From a virus (lineage: Duplodnaviria > Heunggongvirae > Uroviricota > Caudoviricetes): a stretch of 19,414 bases of DNA. A program made the translations under genes and the position numbers. Position 1 is the stretch's first letter. Every line of letters begins with the position of its first letter. The notes beneath the pieces are model-generated. The model was not told the DNA's origin and made no database searches. It was given only the letters and a program-made list of their open reading frames with translations. The DNA is taken from the IMG/VR virus record IMGVR_UViG_2529292911_000011, one strand, 5' to 3'. Below are positions 1,888 through 19,414 of this stretch, one piece after another.

Positions 1888-3216
1888 CTGAGAGATCCCC
1901 TCATAATTTCCCCAAAGCGTAACCATGTGTGAATAAATTTTGAGCTAGTAGGGTTGCAGCCACGAGTAAGTCTTCCCTTGTTATTGTGTAGCCAGAATGC
2001 CGCAAAACTTCCATGCCTAAGCGAACTGTTGAGAGTACGTTTCGATTTCTGACTGTGTTAGCCTGGAAGTGCTTGTCCCAACCTTGTTTCTGAGCATGAA
2101 CGCCCGCAAGCCAACATGTTAGTTGAAGCATCAGGGCGATTAGCAGCATGATATCAAAACGCTCTGAGCTGCTCGTTCGGCTATGGCGTAGGCCTAGTCC
2201 GTAGGCAGGACTTTTCAAGTCTCGGAAGGTTTCTTCAATCTGCATTCGCTTCGAATAGATATTAACAAGTTGTTTGGGTGTTCGAATTTCAACAGGTAAG
2301 TTAGTTGCTAGAACCCATGGCTCCTTTGCCGACGCTGAGTAGATTTTAGGTGACGGGTGGTGACAATGAGTCCGTGTCGAGCGCTGATTTTTTCGGCCTT
2401 TAGAGCGAGATTTATACAATAGAATTTGGCATGAGATTGGATTGCTTTTAGTCAGCCTCTTATAGCCTAAAGTCTTTGAGTGACTAGATGACATATCATG
2501 TAAGTTGCTGATAGGTTTCCAGTTTTCCGCTCCTAGGTCTGCATATTGTACTTTTCCTCTTACTCGACTTAACCAGTACCAACCCAGCTTCTCAACGGAT
2601 TTATACCATGGCACTTTAAAGCCAGCATCACTGACAATGAGCGGTGTGGTGTTACTCGGTAGAATGCTCGCAAGGTCGGCTAGAAATTGGTCATGAGCTT
2701 TCTTTGAACATTGCTCTGAAAGCGGGAACGCTTTCTCATAAAGAGTAACAGAACGACCGTGTAGTGCGACTGAAGCTCGCAATACCATAAGTCGTTTTTG
2801 CTCACGAATATCAGACCAGTCAACAAGTACAATGGGCATCGTATTGCCCGAACAGATAAAGCTAGCATGCCAACGGTATACAGCGAGTCGCTCTTTGTGG
2901 AGGTGACGATTACCTAACAATCGGTCGATTCGTTTGATGTTATGTTTTGTTCTCGCTTTGGTTGGCAGGTTACGGCCAAGTTCGGTAAGAGTGAGAGTTT
3001 TACAGTCAAGTAATGCGTGGCAAGCCAACGTTAAGCTGTTGAGTCGTTTTAAGTGTAATTCGGGGCAGAATTGGTAAAGAGAGTCGTGTAAAATATCGAG
3101 TTCGCACATCTTGTTGTCTGATTATTGATTTTTCGCGAAACCATTTGATCATATGACAAGATGTGTATCCACCTTAACTTAATGATTTTTACCAAAATCA
3201 TTAGGGGATTCATCAG
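1888..3216 (-). mobile_element. IS10 insertion sequence, complete copy (1329 bp)
   Basis: Inside end 'CTGAGAGATCCCCTCATAATTTCCCC' at 1888; outside end (reverse complement of 'CTGATGAATCCCCTAATGATTTTGGTAAAAATCATTAAG') ending at 3216; full-length transposase between them; flanked by a 9-bp direct repeat. Length is exactly 1329 bp. Single copy, no tet genes, so not a composite Tn10. Confidence 0.95.
1901..3109 (-). CDS. IS10 transposase
   Basis: 402-aa ORF 'MCELDILHDSLYQFCPELHLKRLNSLTLACHALL...' that I recognise as the IS10/Tn10 (IS4-family) transposase; lies entirely inside the IS10 ends. Confidence 0.95.
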   Translation of the reverse strand: MCELDILHDSLYQFCPELHLKRLNSLTLACHALLDCKTLTLTELGRNLPTKARTKHNIKRIDRLLGNRHLHKERLAVYRWHASFICSGNTMPIVLVDWSDIREQKRLMVLRASVALHGRSVTLYEKAFPLSEQCSKKAHDQFLADLASILPSNTTPLIVSDAGFKVPWYKSVEKLGWYWLSRVRGKVQYADLGAENWKPISNLHDMSSSHSKTLGYKRLTKSNPISCQILLYKSRSKGRKNQRSTRTHCHHPSPKIYSASAKEPWVLATNLPVEIRTPKQLVNIYSKRMQIEETFRDLKSPAYGLGLRHSRTSSSERFDIMLLIALMLQLTCWLAGVHAQKQGWDKHFQANTVRNRNVLSTVRLGMEVLRHSGYTITREDLLVAATLLAQNLFTHGYALGKL

Positions 3217-3651: not shown

Positions 3652-3855
3652 ATGAACACCGACACGATTCCTACAAAAGGCTATATCAGACGCTTTCGCC
3701 TGGCTGAATTGCTGGGCGTTAGTGTATCCACCATCGACCGTAAAGTAAGAAACGGTTCACTACCACGTCCGGTAAAGCTGGGAGAAAAAATAACTGCGTT
3801 TGATGCGGTTGAGATTCACAACTGGCTGGCAGAACGCCGCGGGAAGGTGGCCTGA
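3652..3855 (+). CDS. alpA: AlpA-family transcriptional regulator (phage-type HTH)
   Basis: 67 aa; 'RLAELLGVSVSTIDRKVRNGSLPRPVKLGEKITAFDAVEIHNWL' matches the AlpA helix-turn-helix pattern; SD 'AAGAGG' upstream; positioned downstream of the integrase as in P4-type islands. Confidence 0.85.
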   Translation: MNTDTIPTKGYIRRFRLAELLGVSVSTIDRKVRNGSLPRPVKLGEKITAFDAVEIHNWLAERRGKVA

Positions 3856-7601: not shown

Positions 7602-10358
7602 ATGCGAAACATTGATCTTATCCGTCAGGTTATCAGTGCGTCTGAAAACAACTGGCCTCATGTGCTGGGCTGCCTGAACATAAATGTCCCTGACTCTCCG
7701 CGCCGTCATGCTCCCTGCCCTGCATGTGGGGGCAAAGATCGATTCCGGTTCGATGACAACGGGCGCGGTAGCTTCATCTGTAATCAGTGCGGCGCTGGTG
7801 ATGGGCTGGATTTAATTAAACGCGTAAATAACTGCGACACAACAGAGGCGGCGCTTCTTGCCGCTGATGTTCTGGGTATTGATTACCGGACAACGGAAAC
7901 ACCAGAAGCCACCAGCCAGAAACGGGAACAACTGGAAACCGAGCGCCAGCGACGCGAACAGGAGCGCCTGAAAAGGGCAGAGAAGGACGAACAACAAAGA
8001 CGGGATACGTTTTCCCGTCAGTTTGATGACATGCGCAGAAAGGCTGTAAACGGCAAATCTGATTATCTGGTTGCGAAAGGGGTAGGTGATTTTACATTCC
8101 CCGTGTTGCCCGATGGATCTCTGTTGCTGGCGCTGGTGGATAAATCCGGCGCAGTCACAGCAGCACAGACTATTACCTCACATGGTGAAAAAAGACTCCT
8201 GACAGGTTCAGCAAAGCGAGGGGCATATCACGCCATAAACGCACCAGAAACAACACAGAGCATCTTAATCGCAGAAGGGCTGGCAACGGCATTATCTGCC
8301 CATTTAATTCGTCCAGAGGCGCTGACAGTGGCGGCGATTGATGCCGGGAACCTGTTATATGTCGCCCAGGTACTGCGGGATAAATTTCCTTCAGCACAAA
8401 TCATCATTGCTGCGGATAACGACCACAGCGAAGGAAGACAAAACACGGGGAGAATAGCAGCAGAAAAAGCAGCTTTATCTGTTTCTGGATGGGTGGCATT
8501 ACCCCCGACAGATCACAAAGCAGACTGGAATGATTACCACCAAAAACACGGCATTAAATGCGCCACAGAAGCGTTCAATAAGTCAATGTACCAACCACAG
8601 GGTAATGGCGTGAAACAGGAGCCACAGACCATTGAGGGAAGCGATTTTAAGGTTATGGATACCGACCCACTGAAACCAAGAATAGAAAGCCGCGAGGATG
8701 GTATTTATTGGGTATCTCCGAGAGCTGACAGCCAGAGTGGAGAAATCATCAATAACGAAAGCTGGTTATGTTCTCCGTTAAGCGTTATCGGTACTGGCAG
8801 AGACGATAAAGACCAGTATCTCATTCTTCGCTGGCTGTCGTTTGGTTCTGAAACGCCGACAACCGCTGCCATTCCACTGGCTGATATTGGTGAACGTGAA
8901 GGATGGCGCACACTTAAAGCTGGTGGGGTAAATGTCACGACCAAAAGCAGCCTCAGAGCAATACTGGCAGACTGGCTACAACGCAGTGGCTCTCGTGAAT
9001 TGTGGCGTGTTGCTCATGCCACTGGCTGGCAATGCGGAGCGTACATCATGCCTGATGGGGAAATCATCGGAACACCTGAAAATCCTGTGCTGTTCAGCGG
9101 GAGAAGCTCAGCCGCAGCCGGATATACCGTCTCAGGGAGCGCGAAAAGCTGGCGTGATAACGTGGCGCGTCTGGCCTTTGGTAACTATTCAATGATGACC
9201 GGGATCGGCGCAGCACTGGCAGCGCCATTGATTGGGCTGGTGGGCGCTGACGGGTTCGGCATTCATTTCTATGAGCAGTCGAGCGCGGGTAAGACCACCA
9301 CGGCAAACGTGGCGAGCAGCTTATACGGCAACCCTGATTTACTGCGGCTGACGTGGTACGGAACCGCGCTGGGGCTGGCAAATGAGGCCGCCGCCCACAA
9401 TGACGGATTAATGCCGCTTGATGAAGTTGGTCAGGGCGCTGATCCTGTCAGCGTTTCACAGTCTGCCTATGCGTTATTTAACGGTGTAGGGAAACTGCAA
9501 GGCGCTAAAGATGGTGGAAACCGTGATCTAAAACGCTGGCGTACAGTGGCAATCAGCACCGGAGAAATGGATTTAGAAACATTTATCGCTACTTCTGGGC
9601 GAAAAACCAAAGCCGGGCAACTGGTGCGACTGCTGAATATTCCGTTGAGTAAAGCAGTACGCTTTCACGATTACCAGAACGGAAAACAGCACGCAGACGC
9701 ACTGAAAGACGCTTACCAGCATCACCACGGCGCAGCCGGGCGTGAGTGGATTAAATGGCTGGCAGACCACCAGCAACAGGCTATTAAAACTGTTCGTGAT
9801 TGCGAAAGCAGATGGAGAAGCCTGATCCCATCCGATTATGGTGAGCAGGTTCACCGTGTAGCCGCGCGATTTGCCATTCTGGAGGCAGCATTGCTGTTAG
9901 GCGAAGTTGTAACAGGCTGGGATGCTCAGACATGCCGTGATGCGATACAGCACAGCTATAACGCATGGTTGCGCGAGTTCGGCACAGGTAACAAAGAACA
10001 TCAGCAGATTATTGAACAAACGGAGGCATTTCTTAATGCCTATGGGCTTAGCCGTTTTGCACCATTTCCATACAGCCCGGCAGATTTGCCCATCAAAGAT
10101 TTAGCCGGATACCGTCAGCGTGGAGAACATGACGAAAGCCCAATGATTTTCTACACATTCCCGGCCACATTTGAAAAGGAGATCGCATGTGGTTTCAACG
10201 CAAAACAGTTTGCTGAAGTGTTGAAAAAAGCCGGGATGCTAACCCCACCAAACAGCGGTCGTGGATACCAAAGAAAATCACCACGTATTCAGGGACGACA
10301 AATAAACGTTTATGTACTCAATTACCAGCCAGGAGATTATAACTCATCTGAAGAATGA
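7602..10358 (+). CDS. DNA primase-helicase (N-terminal zinc ribbon + TOPRIM + C-terminal P-loop ATPase), P4 alpha / PICI Pri-Rep type
   Basis: 918 aa. Cys cluster 'CPACGG...CNQCG' near the N-terminus; TOPRIM-like 'LIAEGLATALS' and 'IIAADNDHSEG'; Walker A-like 'YEQSSAGKTT'. Iteron cluster lies immediately downstream. Confidence 0.9.
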   Translation: MRNIDLIRQVISASENNWPHVLGCLNINVPDSPRRHAPCPACGGKDRFRFDDNGRGSFICNQCGAGDGLDLIKRVNNCDTTEAALLAADVLGIDYRTTETPEATSQKREQLETERQRREQERLKRAEKDEQQRRDTFSRQFDDMRRKAVNGKSDYLVAKGVGDFTFPVLPDGSLLLALVDKSGAVTAAQTITSHGEKRLLTGSAKRGAYHAINAPETTQSILIAEGLATALSAHLIRPEALTVAAIDAGNLLYVAQVLRDKFPSAQIIIAADNDHSEGRQNTGRIAAEKAALSVSGWVALPPTDHKADWNDYHQKHGIKCATEAFNKSMYQPQGNGVKQEPQTIEGSDFKVMDTDPLKPRIESREDGIYWVSPRADSQSGEIINNESWLCSPLSVIGTGRDDKDQYLILRWLSFGSETPTTAAIPLADIGEREGWRTLKAGGVNVTTKSSLRAILADWLQRSGSRELWRVAHATGWQCGAYIMPDGEIIGTPENPVLFSGRSSAAAGYTVSGSAKSWRDNVARLAFGNYSMMTGIGAALAAPLIGLVGADGFGIHFYEQSSAGKTTTANVASSLYGNPDLLRLTWYGTALGLANEAAAHNDGLMPLDEVGQGADPVSVSQSAYALFNGVGKLQGAKDGGNRDLKRWRTVAISTGEMDLETFIATSGRKTKAGQLVRLLNIPLSKAVRFHDYQNGKQHADALKDAYQHHHGAAGREWIKWLADHQQQAIKTVRDCESRWRSLIPSDYGEQVHRVAARFAILEAALLLGEVVTGWDAQTCRDAIQHSYNAWLREFGTGNKEHQQIIEQTEAFLNAYGLSRFAPFPYSPADLPIKDLAGYRQRGEHDESPMIFYTFPATFEKEIACGFNAKQFAEVLKKAGMLTPPNSGRGYQRKSPRIQGRQINVYVLNYQPGDYNSSEE

Positions 10359-10370
10359 GCTTCTTCATGT

Positions 10371-10484
10371 GCGTAGAAAAGGTGTTGGTTCAGTTGGTTC
10401 AGTTGGTTCAATTTGCAAAGAGTATTGTTTTGTAAGGATTTTATTCTTTTTATTGAACCAACACTGAACCAACAACACGGTATT
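10371..10484 (+). repeat. Iteron cluster A (putative origin of replication)
   Basis: Three tandem 9-bp 'GTTGGTTCA' repeats (10374-10400), a ~40-bp AT-rich spacer, then three inverted 'TGAACCAAC' copies (10444-10452, 10455-10463, 10476-10484). Sits directly 3' of the primase-helicase. Confidence 0.8.
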
Positions 10485-10813
10485 TTGAACCAACACAATG
10501 TGACTGAATTGATGCGCTCAACACCTGGCTGGCATCAGAGAGTGTTTTACGAGACTTTCGTAAAATCCTGTGTACAAGGGCGTGACGTTTTTGAAAGTGA
10601 GCACTACGAAATTTTCGTAGTTCAGAAAACAGCCCCTGAGAAGTTGTTATGCCTGTTCAGCAAACCATCCGCATAGCTGATCGCGAATCAAATTACCAAT
10701 GGAGCCAGAAGCAAGGGCAGAACTGAAAAGCGCCTGCCGTGAAGAGTAATGCGACACCATAAATATAGTTTTTAGAGTCCATAAAAAACCTGTCAAAACC
10801 TGACACACAGAAC

Positions 10814-10942: not shown

Positions 10943-11116
10943 ATGGCTATTTCAGTAAAGCCGGTATTGATAAGTGAGAAGCAAATGGAAGCGATAAAGA
11001 AAATTCAGGAGGAGCAGCGTAAAAAATCAGAGGTAGGAGTTGCGCCAACGATCCACGAAATTGCTCGGGGATTAATGGATAAGGCGCTGGCTTACACTTT
11101 AACTGGACGTGGGTAA
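10943..11116 (+). CDS. Small protein (57 aa), possible ribbon-helix-helix DNA-binding protein
   Basis: Not in the ORF track (under 60 aa). ATG 10943 with SD 'AAGGGGG' (10932-10938). 'KPVLISEKQMEAIKKIQEE...GVAPTIHEIARGLMDKAL' has a strand-helix-loop-helix layout compatible with an Arc/CopG-like fold. Ends 4 nt before the next ATG. Confidence 0.45.
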   Translation: MAISVKPVLISEKQMEAIKKIQEEQRKKSEVGVAPTIHEIARGLMDKALAYTLTGRG

Positions 11117-11120
11117 ATCA

Positions 11121-12587
11121 ATGGCTACGTGGCAACAGGGTATTAATTCTGGTGGTTTTCTGGCTGGCATCGGTACGCAAAATGAGAATGCGCCAAAGGC
11201 AAGCGACATTAACGCAACGCTTGGTCTGATTCGCGAAAACAATGAACTGGCTCGATCAGGTGCAAATAACGTTGCTCTGACAGGTCTTCGTGGTCTGGCT
11301 GGAGTTGCTGATATTTATAAGCAGCAGCAACAGCAGGAGCGTAAAGCGGCATTCCAGAAAGGTTATGCAGATGCTTATGCGTCCGGTGACAGGGAGCAGA
11401 TGCGTAATCTTATTACAGCATTCCCAGAAGAGTTTGAGGAAGTCCGTAAAGGGATGAGTTATGTCGATGATGCTCAAAGGGATGATTATGGCAATCTGGC
11501 GCTCAAAGCACAGGTAGCCTCATCGCTTGGTCCGGGCGCATTTGGCAGGTTCATGATGGATAATGAGCAGGAGATGCGTCGTTTAGGTATCCCTCCAGAA
11601 ACTATTGCTGAAATGCAGGTTAATGACCCGCAGGGCTTCCAGCATTTCGCAGGTAATCTGGCGCTGTTTTCTCTCGGTCATGAGAAGTATTTCGATATCA
11701 AAGATCAAATGGAAAGTCGGGATATTGAGCGTGGCAAGTTGGCAGAGACAATCCGCAGCAATCAGGCTGGTGAAGCACTTCAGGCGAGAGGGCAGGATAT
11801 TAGCCGAGCAAATGCGTTAACGTCAGCATATGCACCAACAGCAGCAATGCAGAATTACAATCAGTACGCGCAAATGTTAAAGGCTGATCCAGAGGGGGCG
11901 GCGGCATTTGCGGCAGCGGCTGGAATTAATACAAACACCAAAAAATTAATGAGTGTTAGAGAAAACGATGATGGCACTGTCACAAAATACTACACAGACG
12001 GAAGTGAAGAGCAGGGAAAACTAAACCAGCCAATATCTGGAGATGGGTTTCGTCCAATAGCTTTGCCAACAGCCCAAAAGATCATGGAAAAGTCGCCAGA
12101 AGGGGCTAAAAAAGCTGCTGGATTTGCATACAGGGTTAGGGATGCTCTTGATTCAATAGATACACTGAAAGACCAGCTTAGCCCACAGCGAGTGGCGATC
12201 ATTAATAATGCTTTGGGTAATGGGACGCTGGCTAACTTAACGCTCAGCCCAGCAGAGCAGCAATACGTTGTTAATGCTAATGACGCAATAATGGCAATAC
12301 TCCGTCAGGAAACAGGGGCAGCTATCGCACCTGCTGAAATGTCAAAATATTATCAAATGTATTTCCCTCAGCCTGGCGACTCCACAAAAACCATTGATAC
12401 CAAGCGCCGGAAGATGGAAAACCAGTTCAATTCGCTGAAAGCTGCTTCTGGTCGAACTTATGATGCTTTGCGGGTTATTTCAGCAGTTGACAGAGGAACT
12501 GCTTCTTCGTCGCAGACATTGCCGCAATCTGAGCAGGTATCACAGCCAGCAGCCAGCAGTAACTTTTCTTCACTATGGGGTGATTAA
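11121..12587 (+). CDS. Hypothetical protein (488 aa), Gln/Ala-rich, function unknown
   Basis: ATG 11121 (the track's GTG at 11109 is an alternative start). Poly-Q stretch 'KQQQQQERK', Ala-rich tracts; no catalytic motif recognised. Stop overlaps the start of the next gene (TAATG). Confidence 0.8.
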   Translation: MATWQQGINSGGFLAGIGTQNENAPKASDINATLGLIRENNELARSGANNVALTGLRGLAGVADIYKQQQQQERKAAFQKGYADAYASGDREQMRNLITAFPEEFEEVRKGMSYVDDAQRDDYGNLALKAQVASSLGPGAFGRFMMDNEQEMRRLGIPPETIAEMQVNDPQGFQHFAGNLALFSLGHEKYFDIKDQMESRDIERGKLAETIRSNQAGEALQARGQDISRANALTSAYAPTAAMQNYNQYAQMLKADPEGAAAFAAAAGINTNTKKLMSVRENDDGTVTKYYTDGSEEQGKLNQPISGDGFRPIALPTAQKIMEKSPEGAKKAAGFAYRVRDALDSIDTLKDQLSPQRVAIINNALGNGTLANLTLSPAEQQYVVNANDAIMAILRQETGAAIAPAEMSKYYQMYFPQPGDSTKTIDTKRRKMENQFNSLKAASGRTYDALRVISAVDRGTASSSQTLPQSEQVSQPAASSNFSSLWGD

Positions 12588-14692
12588 TGGCTAAAGCATG
12601 GAAAGATGTTATCGCCTCTCCACAGTATCAGGCGTTAGCACCAGAACAAAAAGCGCAGGCTCAGGAGCAATACTTCAATGAAGTCGTTGCCCCGCAAGCC
12701 GGAGAAAGTGTAGAGCAGGCTAAGCAGGCTTTTTATGCTGCCTATCCACTACCATCAACGAATGAAATAGACCGATCCCAATCAGCAACTCAAAATATTC
12801 AACATACATCATCTGATAATTCTATTGCGTCAGGGTATGCAAAGTTAGCTACTCAGCAAAGAGAGGGGCTTGAGCGTTCAGCAGAACAGGGAGCCAGTCT
12901 TGGGGCTGCGATGCGCGATGCTATAACAGGCGAAAGCCGAATGACTCCAGAGATGGAGAGACTGCAAAATGTCGACCTTGCCCCAGAGTTAACCTCACTC
13001 AGCATGGATGCTCTAAAAGCTCGATGGTCTCAACTTTTCGGCTCTGACGCATCTCAGGAAAAGATTCTTCAGAGCATGGGAGCGAAATTAAGGCAGGATG
13101 AGAAGGGTAACACTATCGTTTCCCTGCCATCCGGTGATTATGCTCTGAACAAGCCGGGTTTATCGCCGCAAGACGTGGCATCGTTTCTGGCTAATGCGCT
13201 GGCGTTTACACCAGCGGGCAGGGCCGGAACGGTGCTGGGGGCCATAGGGAAATCAGCAGCTACAGATTTAGCACTACAGGGAGCCACCAGCCTCGCTGGT
13301 GGAGAAGATATTGATCCGTTACAAACGGTAATTTCTGCTGGCATTGGTGGTATTGGTAAGGGGCTGGAAAATACAGCGAGTGCGGTTTCGAGGGCTGTTC
13401 GTGGTGATATGTCGCCTGAAGCAAAGGCTGCTGTCGACTTTGCATCGGAAAGAAATCTGCCGTTAATGACCAGTGACATGCTGAAAGATAAAACCTTTAT
13501 GCAGAGTCAGGCTCAGACATTAGGCGAAAGAGTTCCTTTTTTTGGAACCGGTAAGAATCGGCTGAATCAACAACAAGCACGAGAAAATTTAGTCAGAACA
13601 TTTAGCGATGGTCTGGGTGGCATTTCTGATAAACAGCTTTATGAATCTGCGACTAAAGGGCAACAAAAATTCATTGAGGCAGCAGGAAAGCGATATAACC
13701 GCATAATTGACGCTATGGGGGATACCCCTGTCGATCTCTCAAACACGGTAAAAGCTATCGACAATCAGATTGCCGTGTTAAGCCGCCCGGGCAAATCTCA
13801 GGATAGAGCCGCGGTAAAAGTCTTGCAGCAATTTAAAGACGATATCACCAGCGGACCAAATGACCTGCGTCTGGCGAGGGAAAACAGAACCGATCTTCGA
13901 AAGCGATTTATGGCGTCATCTGACACTGTTGATAAAGATACGCTCCAGAAAGCCAGCGATATTATCTACAAGGCATATACGGCGGATATGAAAAAAGCCG
14001 TAGCCAAAAATCTTGGAGCAGACGAAGCTATTAATATGGCAAGGGTTGATCGCTCATGGTCTAAATTCAATGACATGATGGGAAGAACGCGCGTTCAAAA
14101 GGCAATAGCCAGCGGCAAGGCCACGCCTGAGGATGTAACAAAACTTGTTTTTAGCCAAAGCCCATCAGAACGTTCTCAGCTTTACAGGCTTCTGGATGAC
14201 AATGGTAGGCAAAACGCACGAGCAGCCATAGTTCAGAATGCTGTAGATAAGGCGACTGATCCGTCTGGAAATATCAGTGTTGAGAAGTTTATTAATGCGT
14301 TACACCGGAACAGGAAGCAATCAGCAACTTTCTTTAAAGGCATACATGGAAAGGAACTGGACGGCGTTATTAAATACCTCAACGATACAAGACACGCGGC
14401 AAAAGCGAACGTTCAAAACTTAAATGGTCAGCAGCTTTATGGATTGTTAGTTGGTGGTGGCATCATAAACGCAGCAGTATTAGCGGGGATGCTAAAAACG
14501 GCTGCGTTTGTTGTTCCTGCTGCTGGTGCCGTAGGCGGAGCAGCGAAGGCATACGAAAGCCCTGTTATACGAAATGCCTTGTTACGTCTGGCAAATACGC
14601 CAAAAGGTAGCACAGCATATGACAGAGCGATCAGTACGGTCACACAATCACTGACCACAGCAGCACAAGCATCGCAAAAGGAAGCTCAATAA
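12587..14692 (+). CDS. Hypothetical protein (701 aa), helical low-complexity with a C-terminal Gly/Ala-rich hydrophobic segment, function unknown
   Basis: Translationally coupled to the upstream gene. Residues ~617-656 'LYGLLVGGGIINAAVLAGMLKTAAFVVPAAGAVGGAAKAY' (nt ~14435-14554) look like a glycine-zipper/transmembrane segment. No nucleotide-binding or nuclease motif recognised. Confidence 0.85.
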   Translation: MAKAWKDVIASPQYQALAPEQKAQAQEQYFNEVVAPQAGESVEQAKQAFYAAYPLPSTNEIDRSQSATQNIQHTSSDNSIASGYAKLATQQREGLERSAEQGASLGAAMRDAITGESRMTPEMERLQNVDLAPELTSLSMDALKARWSQLFGSDASQEKILQSMGAKLRQDEKGNTIVSLPSGDYALNKPGLSPQDVASFLANALAFTPAGRAGTVLGAIGKSAATDLALQGATSLAGGEDIDPLQTVISAGIGGIGKGLENTASAVSRAVRGDMSPEAKAAVDFASERNLPLMTSDMLKDKTFMQSQAQTLGERVPFFGTGKNRLNQQQARENLVRTFSDGLGGISDKQLYESATKGQQKFIEAAGKRYNRIIDAMGDTPVDLSNTVKAIDNQIAVLSRPGKSQDRAAVKVLQQFKDDITSGPNDLRLARENRTDLRKRFMASSDTVDKDTLQKASDIIYKAYTADMKKAVAKNLGADEAINMARVDRSWSKFNDMMGRTRVQKAIASGKATPEDVTKLVFSQSPSERSQLYRLLDDNGRQNARAAIVQNAVDKATDPSGNISVEKFINALHRNRKQSATFFKGIHGKELDGVIKYLNDTRHAAKANVQNLNGQQLYGLLVGGGIINAAVLAGMLKTAAFVVPAAGAVGGAAKAYESPVIRNALLRLANTPKGSTAYDRAISTVTQSLTTAAQASQKEAQ

Positions 14693-16371: not shown

Positions 16372-16623
16372 AGAGGCTCCTCTGCTTTAGATTAAGCATA
16401 GTGACAATCTGGCTTTGGGCGGTATCCAAAAGCGAGGTATCCATGTTGGTATCCACCAAAACGCTGTTTACCAAAAAAGTTACCACCGGAACAGGACATT
16501 TTGAGCTGTAACTTAACACATAGCATATGGAGTTCACGCATAGACTTCACGCACAACGGCTCCGGCCAGTGAAGAATCACCCTGGCTGGCAATATAATGC
16601 CGATCACCATCAGAGGGGAATCC

Positions 16624-16815
16624 ATGACACCACGAGAAATCGAGCTGCTGACCATTGCCAAGCTGGAGCATGACGGCCACCAGCTCAGCCCGGCAGAACT
16701 GCGGGAATTAAGGCGCCAGCTGGCAGAGGGCCCTGTAATAGCCAGGCGGTACCGCGAAATGATGACCAGCCACGCATATCGCTGGAGCAAACCAGCGCCG
16801 CTCCGTGCGCGGTGA
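16624..16815 (+). CDS. Hypothetical small protein (63 aa)
   Basis: ATG 16624 preceded by SD 'GAGGGG'; 'MTPREIELLTIAKLEHDGHQLSPAELRELRRQLAEG...'. Two direct 'TTCACGCA' repeats (16533-16540, 16546-16553) lie upstream. The overlapping minus-strand ORF 16392-16790 is W/R/C-rich and looks spurious. Confidence 0.35.
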   Translation: MTPREIELLTIAKLEHDGHQLSPAELRELRRQLAEGPVIARRYREMMTSHAYRWSKPAPLRAR

Positions 16816-16890
16816 GCAGCACCTAACCAGCACTAGACAAGCCCTGTGCTGGTGGATGTCCCTCATAATTAGCGGTTTTTAAACGGCGTG

Positions 16891-17013
16891 TTGGTTCACG
16901 GCCTCTTTTTGTTGGTTCAAAAATGGGGTGTGTTGGTTCACATTTTGCGAATAATCCTTTTAAAAACAATACTCTTTGCAAATTGAACCAACTGAACCAA
17001 CTGAACCAACACC
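16891..17013 (-). repeat. Iteron cluster B (second ori-like / cis replication region), inverted relative to cluster A
   Basis: On the minus strand: three tandem 'GTTGGTTCA' (plus-strand 'TGAACCAAC' at 16984-17010), an AT-rich spacer, then three dispersed copies (16891-16898, 16912-16919, 16933-16940). Positions 16963-17013 are the exact reverse complement of 10371-10421 (51 bp). Confidence 0.8.
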
Positions 17014-17046
17014 TTTTTGCTTATCTATATAGTCTGAGAGGCAGAA

Positions 17047-17334
17047 ATGATAAGGGACAGGAAAGCTGAAGAGCTGGAGTTAAAAGGGCTATGCCGGAGA
17101 GCTGCCACACGATGGGCAGAAGTCATGACGCTGGCAGATGGCGATAAAGAACGTGAACATGCAGCAAACAGACGCTCTGAATGTATCCGTAGGGCGGCAC
17201 GCCCACCAGCAACTACAGACAGATTCGGAGACTTAAGACAGGCAGTTAAGCGAACGCATTCAGCTCTTGGTATGGATGAGGAAGCGAGAGGGTACTTCAG
17301 GCGTTATCGCGATAAAGATTGCCAGCTACGATAA
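17047..17334 (+). CDS. Hypothetical basic protein (95 aa)
   Basis: ATG 17047 with SD 'GAGAGG'; Arg-rich; immediately downstream of iteron cluster B. No family recognised. Confidence 0.55.
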   Translation: MIRDRKAEELELKGLCRRAATRWAEVMTLADGDKEREHAANRRSECIRRAARPPATTDRFGDLRQAVKRTHSALGMDEEARGYFRRYRDKDCQLR

Positions 17335-17503
17335 AGCAAAGGAGGTGTCTTACTACAATGACCAAGCAAAACTGTCGTTGCTTTCGCATAGCATCAGCTA
17401 AAAGATCAAGACACCCAACATCGCATTAATAAGTATAATCAATTTGCTTCTTTCAACATTTGCTATAGAGTTTTTGAACCTTAATGGTTTATGAGCATCT
17501 ATA

Positions 17504-18268
17504 ATGACTACAACGGTATATGATCGTGTTAACGCCTTAGTAGCGACCGACTCTAGGTGGTCTGTTGATCTTAGCCCACATGGCTACGATGGTCATATCC
17601 TGTATATTGACGATACCGGCTTCGGTAAGCTAGCTCCACGAAATGATTTTGTTATGCTTTTAGCCGGTGATGGTCTTTTGATTCAGTTATGGAAGCATTG
17701 GTGGCGAGGAGACCTATCTCAACAAGAACCACCAGTTGTTTTACCTACTGGTCAATCGGTAAATTTACATATTGTGAAAAAATCAACTAATGAAGTGATT
17801 TTTGATAAAGGTCAAAAATTAGTTGTAAAAAATAACGAAACGGAAGAACTGTTCGCTGTCTTTACAGGCTCAGGATGCGGTGCTGCTGCGCAAAACTGGA
17901 TGTATAGCCATTGCGCAAGATCAGCAATTGAAGAATCTAAAAAGCTTGACCCATACACTGGCGGCACTGTACGTTTTTTAGACTTCAGGACTAACGCATC
18001 ATTAGTAGAAGACTCTGTTTCAACCATTAGCGAAGTAAACGAAGCTCTATTGCAGAGGGGGCTGATTATGGATACCAAAAACCCACATTCACCACACGTT
18101 TCTATCAGTGCACAAGAAGTTGCTGAAGTTCGTCAAATGCTGGTTAGTGGTTCAATTACCCCATGTGCACCAGTAGGCCAAAGAACCCAAGATTGGGATG
18201 ACAACTCCAAATTGCGTTTAGCAAATGCTATTCAGCGTATTCGTGAAGAAGAAGCACAAATGCGATAA
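17504..18268 (+). CDS. Hypothetical protein (254 aa), AT-rich, function unknown
   Basis: Long ORF in a relatively AT-rich segment, followed by a strong hairpin terminator. No motif recognised. Confidence 0.75.
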   Translation: MTTTVYDRVNALVATDSRWSVDLSPHGYDGHILYIDDTGFGKLAPRNDFVMLLAGDGLLIQLWKHWWRGDLSQQEPPVVLPTGQSVNLHIVKKSTNEVIFDKGQKLVVKNNETEELFAVFTGSGCGAAAQNWMYSHCARSAIEESKKLDPYTGGTVRFLDFRTNASLVEDSVSTISEVNEALLQRGLIMDTKNPHSPHVSISAQEVAEVRQMLVSGSITPCAPVGQRTQDWDDNSKLRLANAIQRIREEEAQMR

Positions 18269-18286
18269 ATGGAATAAGTAAGCCTA

Positions 18287-18316
18287 AAAAGCTGCCTATC
18301 ATACAGGCAGCTTTTT
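18287..18316. terminator. Rho-independent terminator, potentially bidirectional
   Basis: 'AAAAGCTGCCT-ATCATAC-AGGCAGCTTTTT': 7-bp GC-rich stem flanked by an A-run on the 5' side and a T-run on the 3' side; 19 nt after the stop of the 254-aa ORF. Confidence 0.75.
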
Positions 18317-18627
18317 AGTCCGTTTCCCCATTCTATGTAAATACACTTCCTAAAAATAGCGATTAACTTACCTCTCACAATCAATTTCACGAGCAATACG
18401 CGTGCGCAGTACAACAAGCCTGAACAGGGTTACACACCTCGATCGTGAGCGATGTAGACAATGGCTTTTGACCAAAGCACCAGAAAAAACCGTGTACATA
18501 AGGGTGTACATAATCAAAAAAATCATTAGAAAGAAATCAGCCACAATGCGGCATTGAAGCCAATACTCTACAAACAGATTCAATTGAGTAACTCGTAACA
18601 CTAATTCTTACTTTTCAGCCTTCACAA

Positions 18628-18658
18628 ATGCCGCCCACTCAAACAGAGCGGCATTTTT
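18628..18658 (+). terminator. Orphan rho-independent terminator-like hairpin
   Basis: Stem 'ATGCCGC' (18628-18634) / 'GCGGCAT' (18648-18654), 13-nt loop, T-run 18654-18658. No plus-strand ORF within about 300 bp upstream. Confidence 0.5.
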
Positions 18659-18748
18659 CTTCCCCGCAACTTCAATTCTGTTTTGCGTGCCTGCTCCAGA
18701 TTTTGCGATGTTTTTTTGCCCAGCACACTGAGAACGTGAGATACTCAC

Positions 18749-18768
18749 AACTGTATATAAATACAGTT
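18749..18768 (+). promoter_or_regulatory. LexA box (SOS operator)
   Basis: 'AACTGTATATAAATACAGTT' is a perfect CTGT-N8-ACAG palindrome with AT-rich centre, about 45 bp upstream of the start of the downstream ORF. It matches the dinD SOS box as I remember it. Confidence 0.8.
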
Positions 18769-18811
18769 ACAGATTTACTTTCTTTGCAATCGATATCACA
18801 TGGAGTGGGCA

Positions 18812-19414
18812 ATGAACGAACATCATCAACCTTTTGAAGAGATAAAACTGATTAATGCAAACGGAGCAGAACAATGGTCAGCAAGACAACTTGGGAAACT
18901 ACTGGGTTATTCAGAGTATCGTCACTTTATACCTGTATTAACGCGCGCCAAAGAGGCCTGTGAGAACAGTGGTCACACAATTGATGACCATTTCGAGGAG
19001 ATCCTCGATATGGTCAAAATTGGCTCAAATGCCAAAAGAGCATTAAAAGACATCGTACTCTCCCGCTATGCCTGTTACCTGGTAGTACAAAACGGCGACC
19101 CCGCGAAACCGGTCATTGCGGCAGGGCAGACTTATTTTGCTATCCAGACCCGACGGCAGGAGCTTGCTGACGATGAAGCATTTAAGCAACTTCGTGAAGA
19201 CGAAAAGCGTCTGTTTCTGAGAAATGAGTTGAAAGAACATAACAAACAATTGGTTGAGGCAGCACAGCAAGCTAATACCACACACTTTGACGTGGGTAGC
19301 AAGGTGAGGCAAACCATTCAGGAACTTGGCGGAACCATGCCTGAGGAGTTGCCGACCCCGCAGGTCAGCATCAAGCAGTTGGAAAACAGTGTAAAAATTA
19401 CAGAGAAGAAATAG
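18812..19414 (+). CDS. dinD: DNA-damage-inducible protein, DinD-like
   Basis: ORF ending at a TAG at the window edge. Preferred start is ATG 18812 (GGAG at 18802-18805); the track start is 18800. Identity rests on the LexA box and my recollection of dinD, not on an alignment. My memory is that DinD is longer (~274 aa), so this may be a shorter variant or my memory may be wrong. Confidence 0.6.
   Translation: MNEHHQPFEEIKLINANGAEQWSARQLGKLLGYSEYRHFIPVLTRAKEACENSGHTIDDHFEEILDMVKIGSNAKRALKDIVLSRYACYLVVQNGDPAKPVIAAGQTYFAIQTRRQELADDEAFKQLREDEKRLFLRNELKEHNKQLVEAAQQANTTHFDVGSKVRQTIQELGGTMPEELPTPQVSIKQLENSVKITEKK

Follow-up and report, generated by a model that had tools for sequence, protein, structure and literature searches.

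A predicted proteasome-β/HslV-like threonine hydrolase carried as variable cargo at the end of an Escherichia coli phage satellite

Two genes lie between a cluster of short repeats and dinD near the right end of a 19,414-nucleotide (nt) stretch of DNA (IMG/VR record IMGVR_UViG_2529292911_000011; the whole stretch analysed is called the window). One encodes an Arg-rich protein of 95 amino acids (aa), the other a protein of 254 aa. A first-pass annotation placed both open reading frames (ORFs) correctly but left them unassigned and without recognisable motifs. The locus raises the question of what the two proteins are and whether their genes belong to the backbone of the element or to its exchangeable cargo. 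Homology and structure searches, the check proposed in that annotation, assign both: the 95-aa protein is a PerC-family regulator, and the 254-aa protein has a predicted proteasome-β/HslV-like fold (AlphaFold2 and Foldseek). The whole window is a phage-inducible chromosomal island (PICI) of the EcCIMP1 type, with yicC and dinD of Escherichia coli on either side of its integration site. EcCIMP1 is an experimentally characterised PICI that the P22-like phage Kapi1 mobilises (Pick, Stadel & Raivio 2025, PMC11773190). We are highly confident of the identity of the 254-aa gene and of its status as cargo.

Predicted fold and active site of the 254-aa protein

The 254-aa protein (WP_000214207.1; 17504–18268, + strand) is a predicted proteasome-β/HslV-like N-terminal-threonine hydrolase, with the core fold in residues 1 to ~165 and a C-terminal extension in residues ~165–254. 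The profile PHROG 1040, "peptidase HslV family", matches residues 1–165 with an E-value of 2.8e-13. A protein database search returned 80 relatives, all of ~250 aa and all labelled "hypothetical", with identities down to ~27%. The AlphaFold2 model built from the alignment of these relatives reached a predicted local distance difference test score (pLDDT) of 93.1 and a predicted template-modelling score (pTM) of 0.88. The model shows the four-layer α-β-β-α fold of proteasome β subunits, and the top 41 matches of a Foldseek search against the PDB are 20S β subunits with a probability of 1.0. Viral (phage-encoded) proteasome-like proteins are also present in BFVD.

The hosts of the relatives comprise Enterobacterales, Aeromonas, Vibrio, Marinomonas, Pseudomonas, and Cupriavidus, and the named matches are all from Gamma- or Betaproteobacteria. 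A profile search of 1.84 billion representative sequences recovered 441 clusters (50% identity), of which 181 have E <= 1e-30. Lengths of 235–265 aa and end-to-end matches characterise nearly all of these clusters, a compact two-domain family with a conserved C-terminal extension of ~90 residues after the core.

The protein begins with MTTTV, with Thr2 located right after the initiator Met; because there is no propeptide, Thr2 could be exposed by methionine aminopeptidase. In HslV, removal of Met1 by this enzyme likewise exposes the N-terminal Thr. Nearly all of the 212 full-length family members begin with (M/V/L)-T-T; the conservation of Thr2, Thr3, and Asp16 is 96%, 97%, and 99%, respectively, and Asp36, Lys42, Gly55, Gly122, Gly124, Ala128, Asp149, and Gly186 are 100% conserved. 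The G-S-G motif at residues 122–124 is essentially invariant in the family, as are Asp16, Lys42, Gly55, and Asp149. We infer that Thr2, Asp16, Lys42, Gly55, the G-S-G motif, and Asp149 correspond to Thr1, Asp17, Lys33, Gly47, Gly128-Ser129-Gly130, and Asp166 of the proteasome. In the model, these residues are situated at the start of strand S1, at the end of S2, before S4, before helix H1, before H3, and after H4, in agreement with proteasome topology. The model thus gives the protein the N-terminal nucleophile (Ntn) hydrolase fold of proteasome-β/HslV with a conserved Ntn-type active site, and the protein is predicted, with good probability, to be an active hydrolase. The kinship to proteasomes is visible only by the fold and via the PHROG profile. 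Two other candidate matches were discarded. A single-sequence search of the PDB pointed to the trypanosome mitoribosomal protein mS26 (residues 145–251, E = 0.006), which we take to be spurious because it is neither recovered with the family profile nor echoed by the fold searches. An hhalign comparison of the family with an HslV sequence gave only a meaningless 16-column match.

Fuchs, Alva & Lupas 2021 (PMC8665760) described 22 new (orphan) groups of proteasome homologues. In their nomenclature, "PPH" denotes a form of ~140 aa that phages and their hosts encode, while RPC occurs only in Proteobacteria, is related to phage PPH, lacks helix H2, and carries a C-terminal domain of unknown fold. 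The family described here shares with RPC the proteasome-like fold, the Thr1/Asp/Lys active site, and the lack of a propeptide. Both have one helix between the first two sheets, H2 being missing (residues 57–68 form this helix in our model), and both carry an extra C-terminal domain with no known structural match, which corresponds to residues ~165–254. Both are also small families restricted to Proteobacteria with a tie to phage PPH-type proteins, in our case through PHROG 1040. The 254-aa protein is therefore putatively assigned to the RPC group, by features and not by identity with the RPC representative WP_140207863, which was not among the 20 family clusters inspected; the gammaproteobacterial "GPH" group is the alternative.

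The protein is not HslV proper. HslV (ClpQ), which provides the peptidase of the HslUV protease, has ~175 aa, belongs to the core genome, and is encoded with an adjacent hslU ATPase gene, whereas the 254-aa protein has ~80 extra C-terminal residues, matches no HslV model in Pfam or NCBIfam, and belongs to a family carried on mobile elements. In addition, the family differs from HslV in its specific invariant motifs RWS, DDTGF, WK.W, and SAP, and neither hslU nor another AAA+ neighbour is present in any of the ~25 annotated family loci.

A variable cargo cassette at the attR-proximal end of the island

The 254-aa gene is the last gene ahead of attR, at the 3' end of the island. The attR core (CGTGTACATAAGGGTGTACATAAT, 18491–18514) is a direct repeat of the attL core located between yicC and int. 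In the island of E. coli strain ETEC1731, which carries a 100% identical stretch of island DNA, 22 of the 24 positions agree between the left and right junctions, giving the consensus CGTGTACATA(A/G)(A/G)GGTGTACATAAT. Compared with sister islands that run from perC straight to dinD, the window loses homology at ~17330, within the last two perC codons, and regains it at ~18382, and the attR flank is kept in all islands aligned. The alignment defines a swap-in cargo cassette of 1,052 bp (17330–18381; GC 40.3%) that ends 110 bp inside attR. The sister islands have 330–380 bp in its place, with no annotated gene and, in the ORF list of one of them, no convincing ORF.

We found a DNA match to perC in 532 of 5,426 complete E. 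coli genomes, with at least 80% gene coverage in 312 of them (the perC allele group), and EcCIMP1 also encodes a PerC protein; the 95-aa gene is therefore a conserved satellite gene and not unassigned cargo. The cassette occurs in 43 of the 5,426 genomes, ~14% of the perC allele group (43/312), always at an identity of at least 99.9% and with the ORF intact. These counts (43 versus 312), together with the alignment break in the sister islands, exclude the presence of the 254-aa gene in every island of the lineage. The comparison of sister islands proposed in the first-pass annotation thus shows a variable gene. The possibility that annotation had set against its own reading, namely that both genes are conserved core genes of the satellite, is borne out for perC and fails for the 254-aa gene.

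The order perC, 254-aa gene, dinD is found in five of the five islands annotated. All five encode the identical WP_000214207.1, next to perC in three alleles (three protein accessions), and they vary in the accessory genes that precede perC. Identical cargo beside differing perC alleles, the homology break, and the position of attR bear out the earlier view of the gene as an independently acquired module at the right edge of the island. Other islands have nothing in the slot after perC, or a pRiA4b ORF-3-family gene accompanied by small hypothetical genes. The slot on the upstream side of perC contains an Abi-family gene, an ImmA/IrrE metallopeptidase gene with a partner, or other genes in the sister islands (L022 1294–2271, L023 1294–2271, and L002 4418–5281), so both flanks of perC are variable accessory slots. 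The cassette occupies an accessory hot spot at the 3' (attR-proximal) end of the island, and, according to the Tai paper of the Penadés group, the immune systems of PICIs are encoded at the 5' or 3' end (PMC11364771).

The base composition of the gene (GC 42.1%, 31% at third codon positions) is lower than that of perC (51%) and of the island core (48.6%), and the strong terminator noted in the first-pass annotation is also real. This bidirectional intrinsic terminator (18284–18318, both strands) closes the cassette with a perfect 14-bp stem and a 7-nt loop; because an A-run lies 5' and a T-run 3' of the stem, it resembles a terminator in both directions. The folding free energy of the RNA hairpin is −21.8 kcal/mol (z = −5.1), a stability matched by none of 200 shuffled sequences. 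No terminator was detected by a terminator scan between perC and the 254-aa gene, and transcription reading through from perC is possible.

Directly upstream of the gene, a conserved block (17427–17503, + strand) contains ATAAGTATAATCAATT, a putative −35 element (TTGCTT, 17444–17449), a putative −10 element (TAGAGT, 17466–17471), and GAGCATCTATA directly before the ATG. Alignment with three other loci (L004, L016, and L026) indicates that this ~80-nt block accompanies the gene in different elements, with the consensus ATAAGTATAATC.ATT ... TTGCT ... TA.A.T ... GAGC.TCTA.AATG. The proteins at these loci are only 37–72% identical, and the block retains 70% nt identity to loci in which the protein is only 37% identical. 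Judged from this conservation, the block is a putative promoter and 5' untranslated region of the cassette's own, with weak −35 and −10 elements. Its ~17-nt motif, (G)ATAAGTATAATC(G/A)ATT, is found at 17427–17445 in the window, at ~7925–7945 in L004, and at ~7920–7945 in L016 and L026, in unrelated elements (PICI, lambdoid prophage end, and cI slot), and may act as part of a promoter or as the site where a common regulator binds. With the conserved upstream block, one ORF, a strong bidirectional terminator, variable presence, and deviant base composition, the cassette has the layout of a "moron".

Genomic contexts of the relatives and a possible role

What would such an enzyme do in a phage satellite? 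We examined the contexts of the relatives in ~60 loci, namely 24 loci with pre-annotated neighbours and 37 IMG/VR viral contigs that carry a relative (S24-repressor search, with Pfam spot-checks of 20 neighbour ORFs). With few exceptions, the relatives are single genes carried as cargo by temperate elements. A tblastn search of 50,697 GenBank phage genomes found no family match; the family resides on prophages and satellites, not on sequenced (mostly virulent) phage isolates. At 13 of 13 loci examined, the stop codon is followed within ~20 nt by a hairpin-plus-T-run terminator of the gene's own, and the GC content of the gene is below that of the flanks in 12 of the 13. No partner gene, either a small upstream ORF or an ATPase gene, is common to the annotated loci.

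The slots occupied by the relatives recur. In lambdoid prophages, the relative is located directly downstream of, and co-oriented with, a CI-type repressor gene (HTH plus Peptidase_S24), which is the slot of lambda rexAB and BTP1 bstA. Examples are a Serratia prophage (74% identical protein) and four distinct prophages of Enterobacter, E. coli, or Klebsiella (53% identity), and the same arrangement is seen in 9 of the 37 IMG/VR contigs at 35–53% identity, three of the nine being verified by Pfam. Two P2-like prophages carry the relative between gpA and the portal/terminase genes, in the old/tin slot. At prophage ends, relatives adjoin tail-fibre or J genes, lysis genes, or a convergent integrase gene, and in Aeromonas and other prophages they lie beside large polyvalent (LPD) proteins and Arc/KilA-N/ANT regions. 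A filamentous prophage of Vibrio cholerae (Rep_trans, DUF1293, Zot; L010, and likewise L011 and L012) ends, after zot, with the gene for a homologue of 32% identity (8001–8789 in L010). The family thus occupies accessory slots of at least five kinds of temperate element, with variable presence.

Several of these slots have known occupants. The cI–N interval is a mosaic hot spot containing the abortive-infection genes rexAB and bstA, and its promoter is among the most active in lysogens (Owen et al., PMC8585504); the old/tin slot of P2 is a defence hot spot (Rousset et al. 2022, PMC9122126). Lambda RexAB, Salmonella BTP1 BstA, and P2 Old/Tin share the position of our relatives, after cI or in the gpA–portal interval, and are likewise variably present accessory genes expressed in lysogens, bstA also with its own Rho-independent terminator. 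Their proteins are unrelated to the 254-aa family, and the likeness is positional only. Because the relatives sit solitary in slots used for lysogen-expressed exclusion or abortive-infection genes, we propose, tentatively, that the 254-aa protein has a phage-exclusion role for the resident element.

In this proposal, a threonine peptidase would be expressed from the resident element. Methionine aminopeptidase would remove Met1, the free amino group and the hydroxyl of Thr2 would provide the nucleophile, and Lys42 and Asp16 would complete a proteasome-type triad. The enzyme would be a cytoplasmic peptidase, or conceivably an amidase or a transpeptidase as in connectase. Its target would be a protein of an incoming phage or a host factor needed by the phage, and the cleavage would protect both the resident element and the host. 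Lit, a cytoplasmic zinc metalloprotease encoded by the e14 prophage and triggered by the Gol peptide of T4, aborts phage infection through cleavage of one specific protein, EF-Tu. Lit sets a precedent for a single prophage protease that aborts infection, but only the 254-aa protein is a predicted Ntn threonine hydrolase. More broadly, we infer from the contexts that the protein would be a resident-element protease of phage exclusion or lysogenic conversion, and the explanation as a whole appears somewhat probable. The RPC-type homologues in general may perhaps constitute a hitherto unrecognised single-gene anti-phage system (exclusion or abortive infection), spread as promoter-gene-terminator morons through the hot spots of PICIs and of lambdoid, P2-like, and filamentous prophages, which we put forward with reservation.

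A number of observations weigh against this explanation. No Pfam or NCBIfam model matches the 254-aa protein, no defence or candidate-defence hidden Markov model of PADLOC-DB v2 matches it at E <= 1, and the family profile searched against PDB sequences reaches no solved proteasome or HslV. The mapping of the catalytic residues rests on positions in a predicted structure. HslV and proteasome subunits in isolation show little activity unless they are assembled or activated, and neither an activator nor a partner ATPase is encoded near the gene. A strict consensus σ70 scan detected no promoter at the cassette. The phage-resistance role for any family member rests on position, which by itself is weak evidence, since accessory slots also hold virulence genes, methylases, and other non-defence cargo. 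Phage genes are not recognisable at the Cupriavidus locus, and in Raoultella (L016) and Salmonella (L035) the relative lies among genes of islands or prophage remnants (umuDC, DinI, and resolvase) and not in an identifiable prophage. Finally, the terms "proteasome", "HslV", and WP_000214207.1 are absent from the text of the Rousset hot-spot tables, one of them available only in part. A literature search, including the papers citing Fuchs et al., found no paper naming the protein and no functional report on a proteasome-like or HslV-like defence gene.

The same contexts were considered under other explanations. The hydrolase might serve a lysogenic conversion unrelated to phages, degrading a host regulator or a stress- or SOS-related protein with a gain in the fitness or virulence of the carrier. 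Moron slots at prophage ends or after zot classically hold virulence or fitness genes, and a relative in a Vibrio filamentous prophage is in the terminal post-zot slot; among the neighbours, several have SOS links (umuDC and DinI at the Raoultella and Salmonella loci, besides S24 repressors), and the PerC homologue of EcCIMP1 modulates virulence expression from LEE (locus of enterocyte effacement) (PMC11773190). This explanation nevertheless seems unlikely, since the hosts range from enteric to environmental (Marinomonas, Aeromonas, Pseudomonas, and Cupriavidus) without an apparent common lifestyle, and the recurrent slots (cI–N, gpA–gpQ, and PICI ends) are those experimentally enriched in anti-phage genes (PMC9122126, PMC11364771, PMC8585504). 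The protease might instead serve the element itself as a tool, in its life cycle or in counter-defence. It would then act during induction, for instance on a repressor of the helper or host, on a defence protein of the host, or, as satellite interference, on structural proteins of the helper. The gene does adjoin repressors and antirepressors in several prophages, and PICIs interfere with their helpers, EcCIMP1 affecting its helper phage Kapi1 (PMC11773190). Even so, its presence in only ~14% of the islands with this perC makes it dispensable for the satellite cycle, the elements that carry it differ in life cycle (inovirus, P2-like, lambdoid, and PICI), and the same-strand position behind cI predicts expression in the lysogen and not in the lytic phase (PMC8585504), which renders such a tool quite improbable.

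An inactive pseudo-enzyme or decaying hitch-hiker without current function could account for a small family that no curated Pfam, NCBIfam, or PADLOC model matches. We regard this as extremely improbable, since the catalytic positions are 96–100% conserved in 212 sequences at identities down to ~27%, the length is fixed with full-length matches in 441 clusters, and the ORF is intact and at least 99.9% identical in all 43 genomes.

If the phage-exclusion role proposed above is true, no earlier immune effector would share the protein's proteasome/HslV threonine-protease fold, and bacterial immunity would gain a mechanistically new effector class, an ATPase-independent threonine protease. This role would also explain the carriage of the gene by ~14% of these E. 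coli satellites and give a role to one orphan "proteasome homologue" group. Fuchs et al. found no genomic context suggestive of function (PMC8665760), whereas the family here is cargo of prophage and satellite hot spots; the orphan group gains a context as solitary cargo of temperate phages and satellites in the RexAB, BstA, Old/Tin, and PICI immune-gene slots. The group itself was already catalogued, and its residence in these hot spots seems to be unreported. Only the Cupriavidus locus (L025), which has the most divergent of the homologues examined, offers a possible proteolytic partner: the gene after the homologue, on the same strand, encodes a 442-aa CLP_protease-domain protein (8777–10105).

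PerC, the mini-ORF, and the rest of the island

The 95-aa protein (17047–17334, + strand; 19 Arg residues, pI 9.9) matches the Pfam PerC family (PF06069) over its full length, with residues 1–89 aligned to positions 1–89 of the 90 profile positions (E = 1e-30; 106.2 bits against a cut-off of 22.6), and RefSeq labels it as a PerC family transcriptional regulator. The last two codons of perC lie inside the swapped segment. The protein is 51% identical across 85 aa to EcCIMP1_025, a PerC-like protein that repressed LEE1 in Citrobacter rodentium (PMC11773190). It is, by its homology, a small basic regulator of the PerC family encoded by a PICI backbone gene of an already known kind, and the annotation of the gene is corrected in this respect whatever the function of its neighbour.

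Between perC and the conserved upstream block lies a mini-ORF of 23 codons (17358–17429, + strand), rich in Cys and Arg, with a Shine-Dalgarno sequence AGGAGGTG (17340–17347) located 10 nt before its ATG. These coordinates agree with the first-pass annotation, which had suggested a leader peptide controlling the 254-aa gene. The strong AGGAGGTG site would suit this suggestion, as would the terminator-free gap after perC, since read-through transcripts would include the mini-ORF. On the other side, the peptide is seen only in the E. coli copies of the cassette, where two copies already differ by one amino-acid change, and is absent upstream of all other homologues. The mini-ORF stops at 17429, upstream of the conserved ~80-nt block; an Rfam scan of 16500–18900 gave only chance-level matches, with no Rfam family or attenuator-like structure, and 58 ORFs of at least 20 codons occur by chance in the 2.9 kb at this locus. 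Given its lack of conservation and its position ahead of the conserved block with the putative promoter, the mini-ORF is probably not functional as a leader peptide, a reading to which we give very little credence.

The iteron cluster B named in the first-pass annotation is real. The window contains 12 exact copies of the 9-mer GTTGGTTCA, against 0.17 expected by chance, in two clusters of six. Cluster B (16890–17010), immediately upstream of perC, consists of three direct copies with a 21-nt spacing followed by three inverted tandem copies with a 9-nt spacing; it is context and lies outside the cargo cassette. Its twin, also of six exact copies, is situated at 10384–10494 directly after the primase gene, the usual site of a PICI origin. 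The two clusters bracket the entire P22-type ejection-protein module and accessory genes.

According to the RefSeq annotation and Pfam, the gene order of the island is integrase (int, 1–1260), AlpA (3652–3855), AntA/AntB antirepressor, Ash, Zn-ribbon/Toprim/DUF927 primase (7602–10358), P22 injectosome translocase, a second ejection protein, a small helix-turn-helix (HTH) protein, and PerC; Pfam confirms AlpA (Phage_AlpA), the Toprim/DUF927 primase, and the P22 injectosome translocase. The island has a terminal integrase gene, AlpA, a primase/replication module, and att repeats at its flanks, and capsid, tail, and lysis genes are absent, as is typical of a PICI. The backbone of EcCIMP1 is arranged identically (int, AlpA, AntA/B, Ash, primase, P22-type ejection proteins, HTH, and PerC), and its locus is syntenic with the window, some proteins sharing a RefSeq accession, i.e., being identical. 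The two islands differ in the integrase and the att site, which is tRNA-Thr/proA in EcCIMP1 and yicC/dinD in the window, and in the slot after perC, where EcCIMP1 has a pRiA4b ORF-3-family gene and two hypothetical genes and the window has the proteasome-like gene. The identical 254-aa gene is also found on an 11,992-bp IMG/VR contig, its presence there being no demonstration of packaging.

The ejection module (11109–14692) contains P22 injectosome-type genes, encoding Inj_translocase (Pfam E = 7e-84) and a 701-aa partner; such virion/ejection proteins are atypical for a satellite and are also encoded by EcCIMP1. The gene for the 701-aa ejection (injection) protein is intact in the window (12587–14692), whereas IS1203 splits the ETEC1731 copy (L001 12799–15893). 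The 5' accessory region between int and alpA holds a DDE_Tnp_1 transposase gene of the insertion-sequence type (402 aa, 1901–3109, − strand) and a 188-aa ORF without assignment (1356–1922, + strand, GC 43%), and a different hypothetical gene of 846 bp occupies this region in the otherwise identical ETEC1731 island.

Outside the island, about 240 bp past attR and upstream of dinD, there is a LexA-box-like perfect palindrome, CTGTATATAAATACAG (18751–18766). The dinD allele adjoining the island (18800–19414) encodes 204 aa instead of the 274 aa elsewhere, with an in-frame loss of roughly residues 156–221. Over the first 155 aligned residues, identity to dinD of other strains is only 74%, with most of the differences in the N-terminal ~90 residues, and the C-terminal 53 residues are 92% identical.

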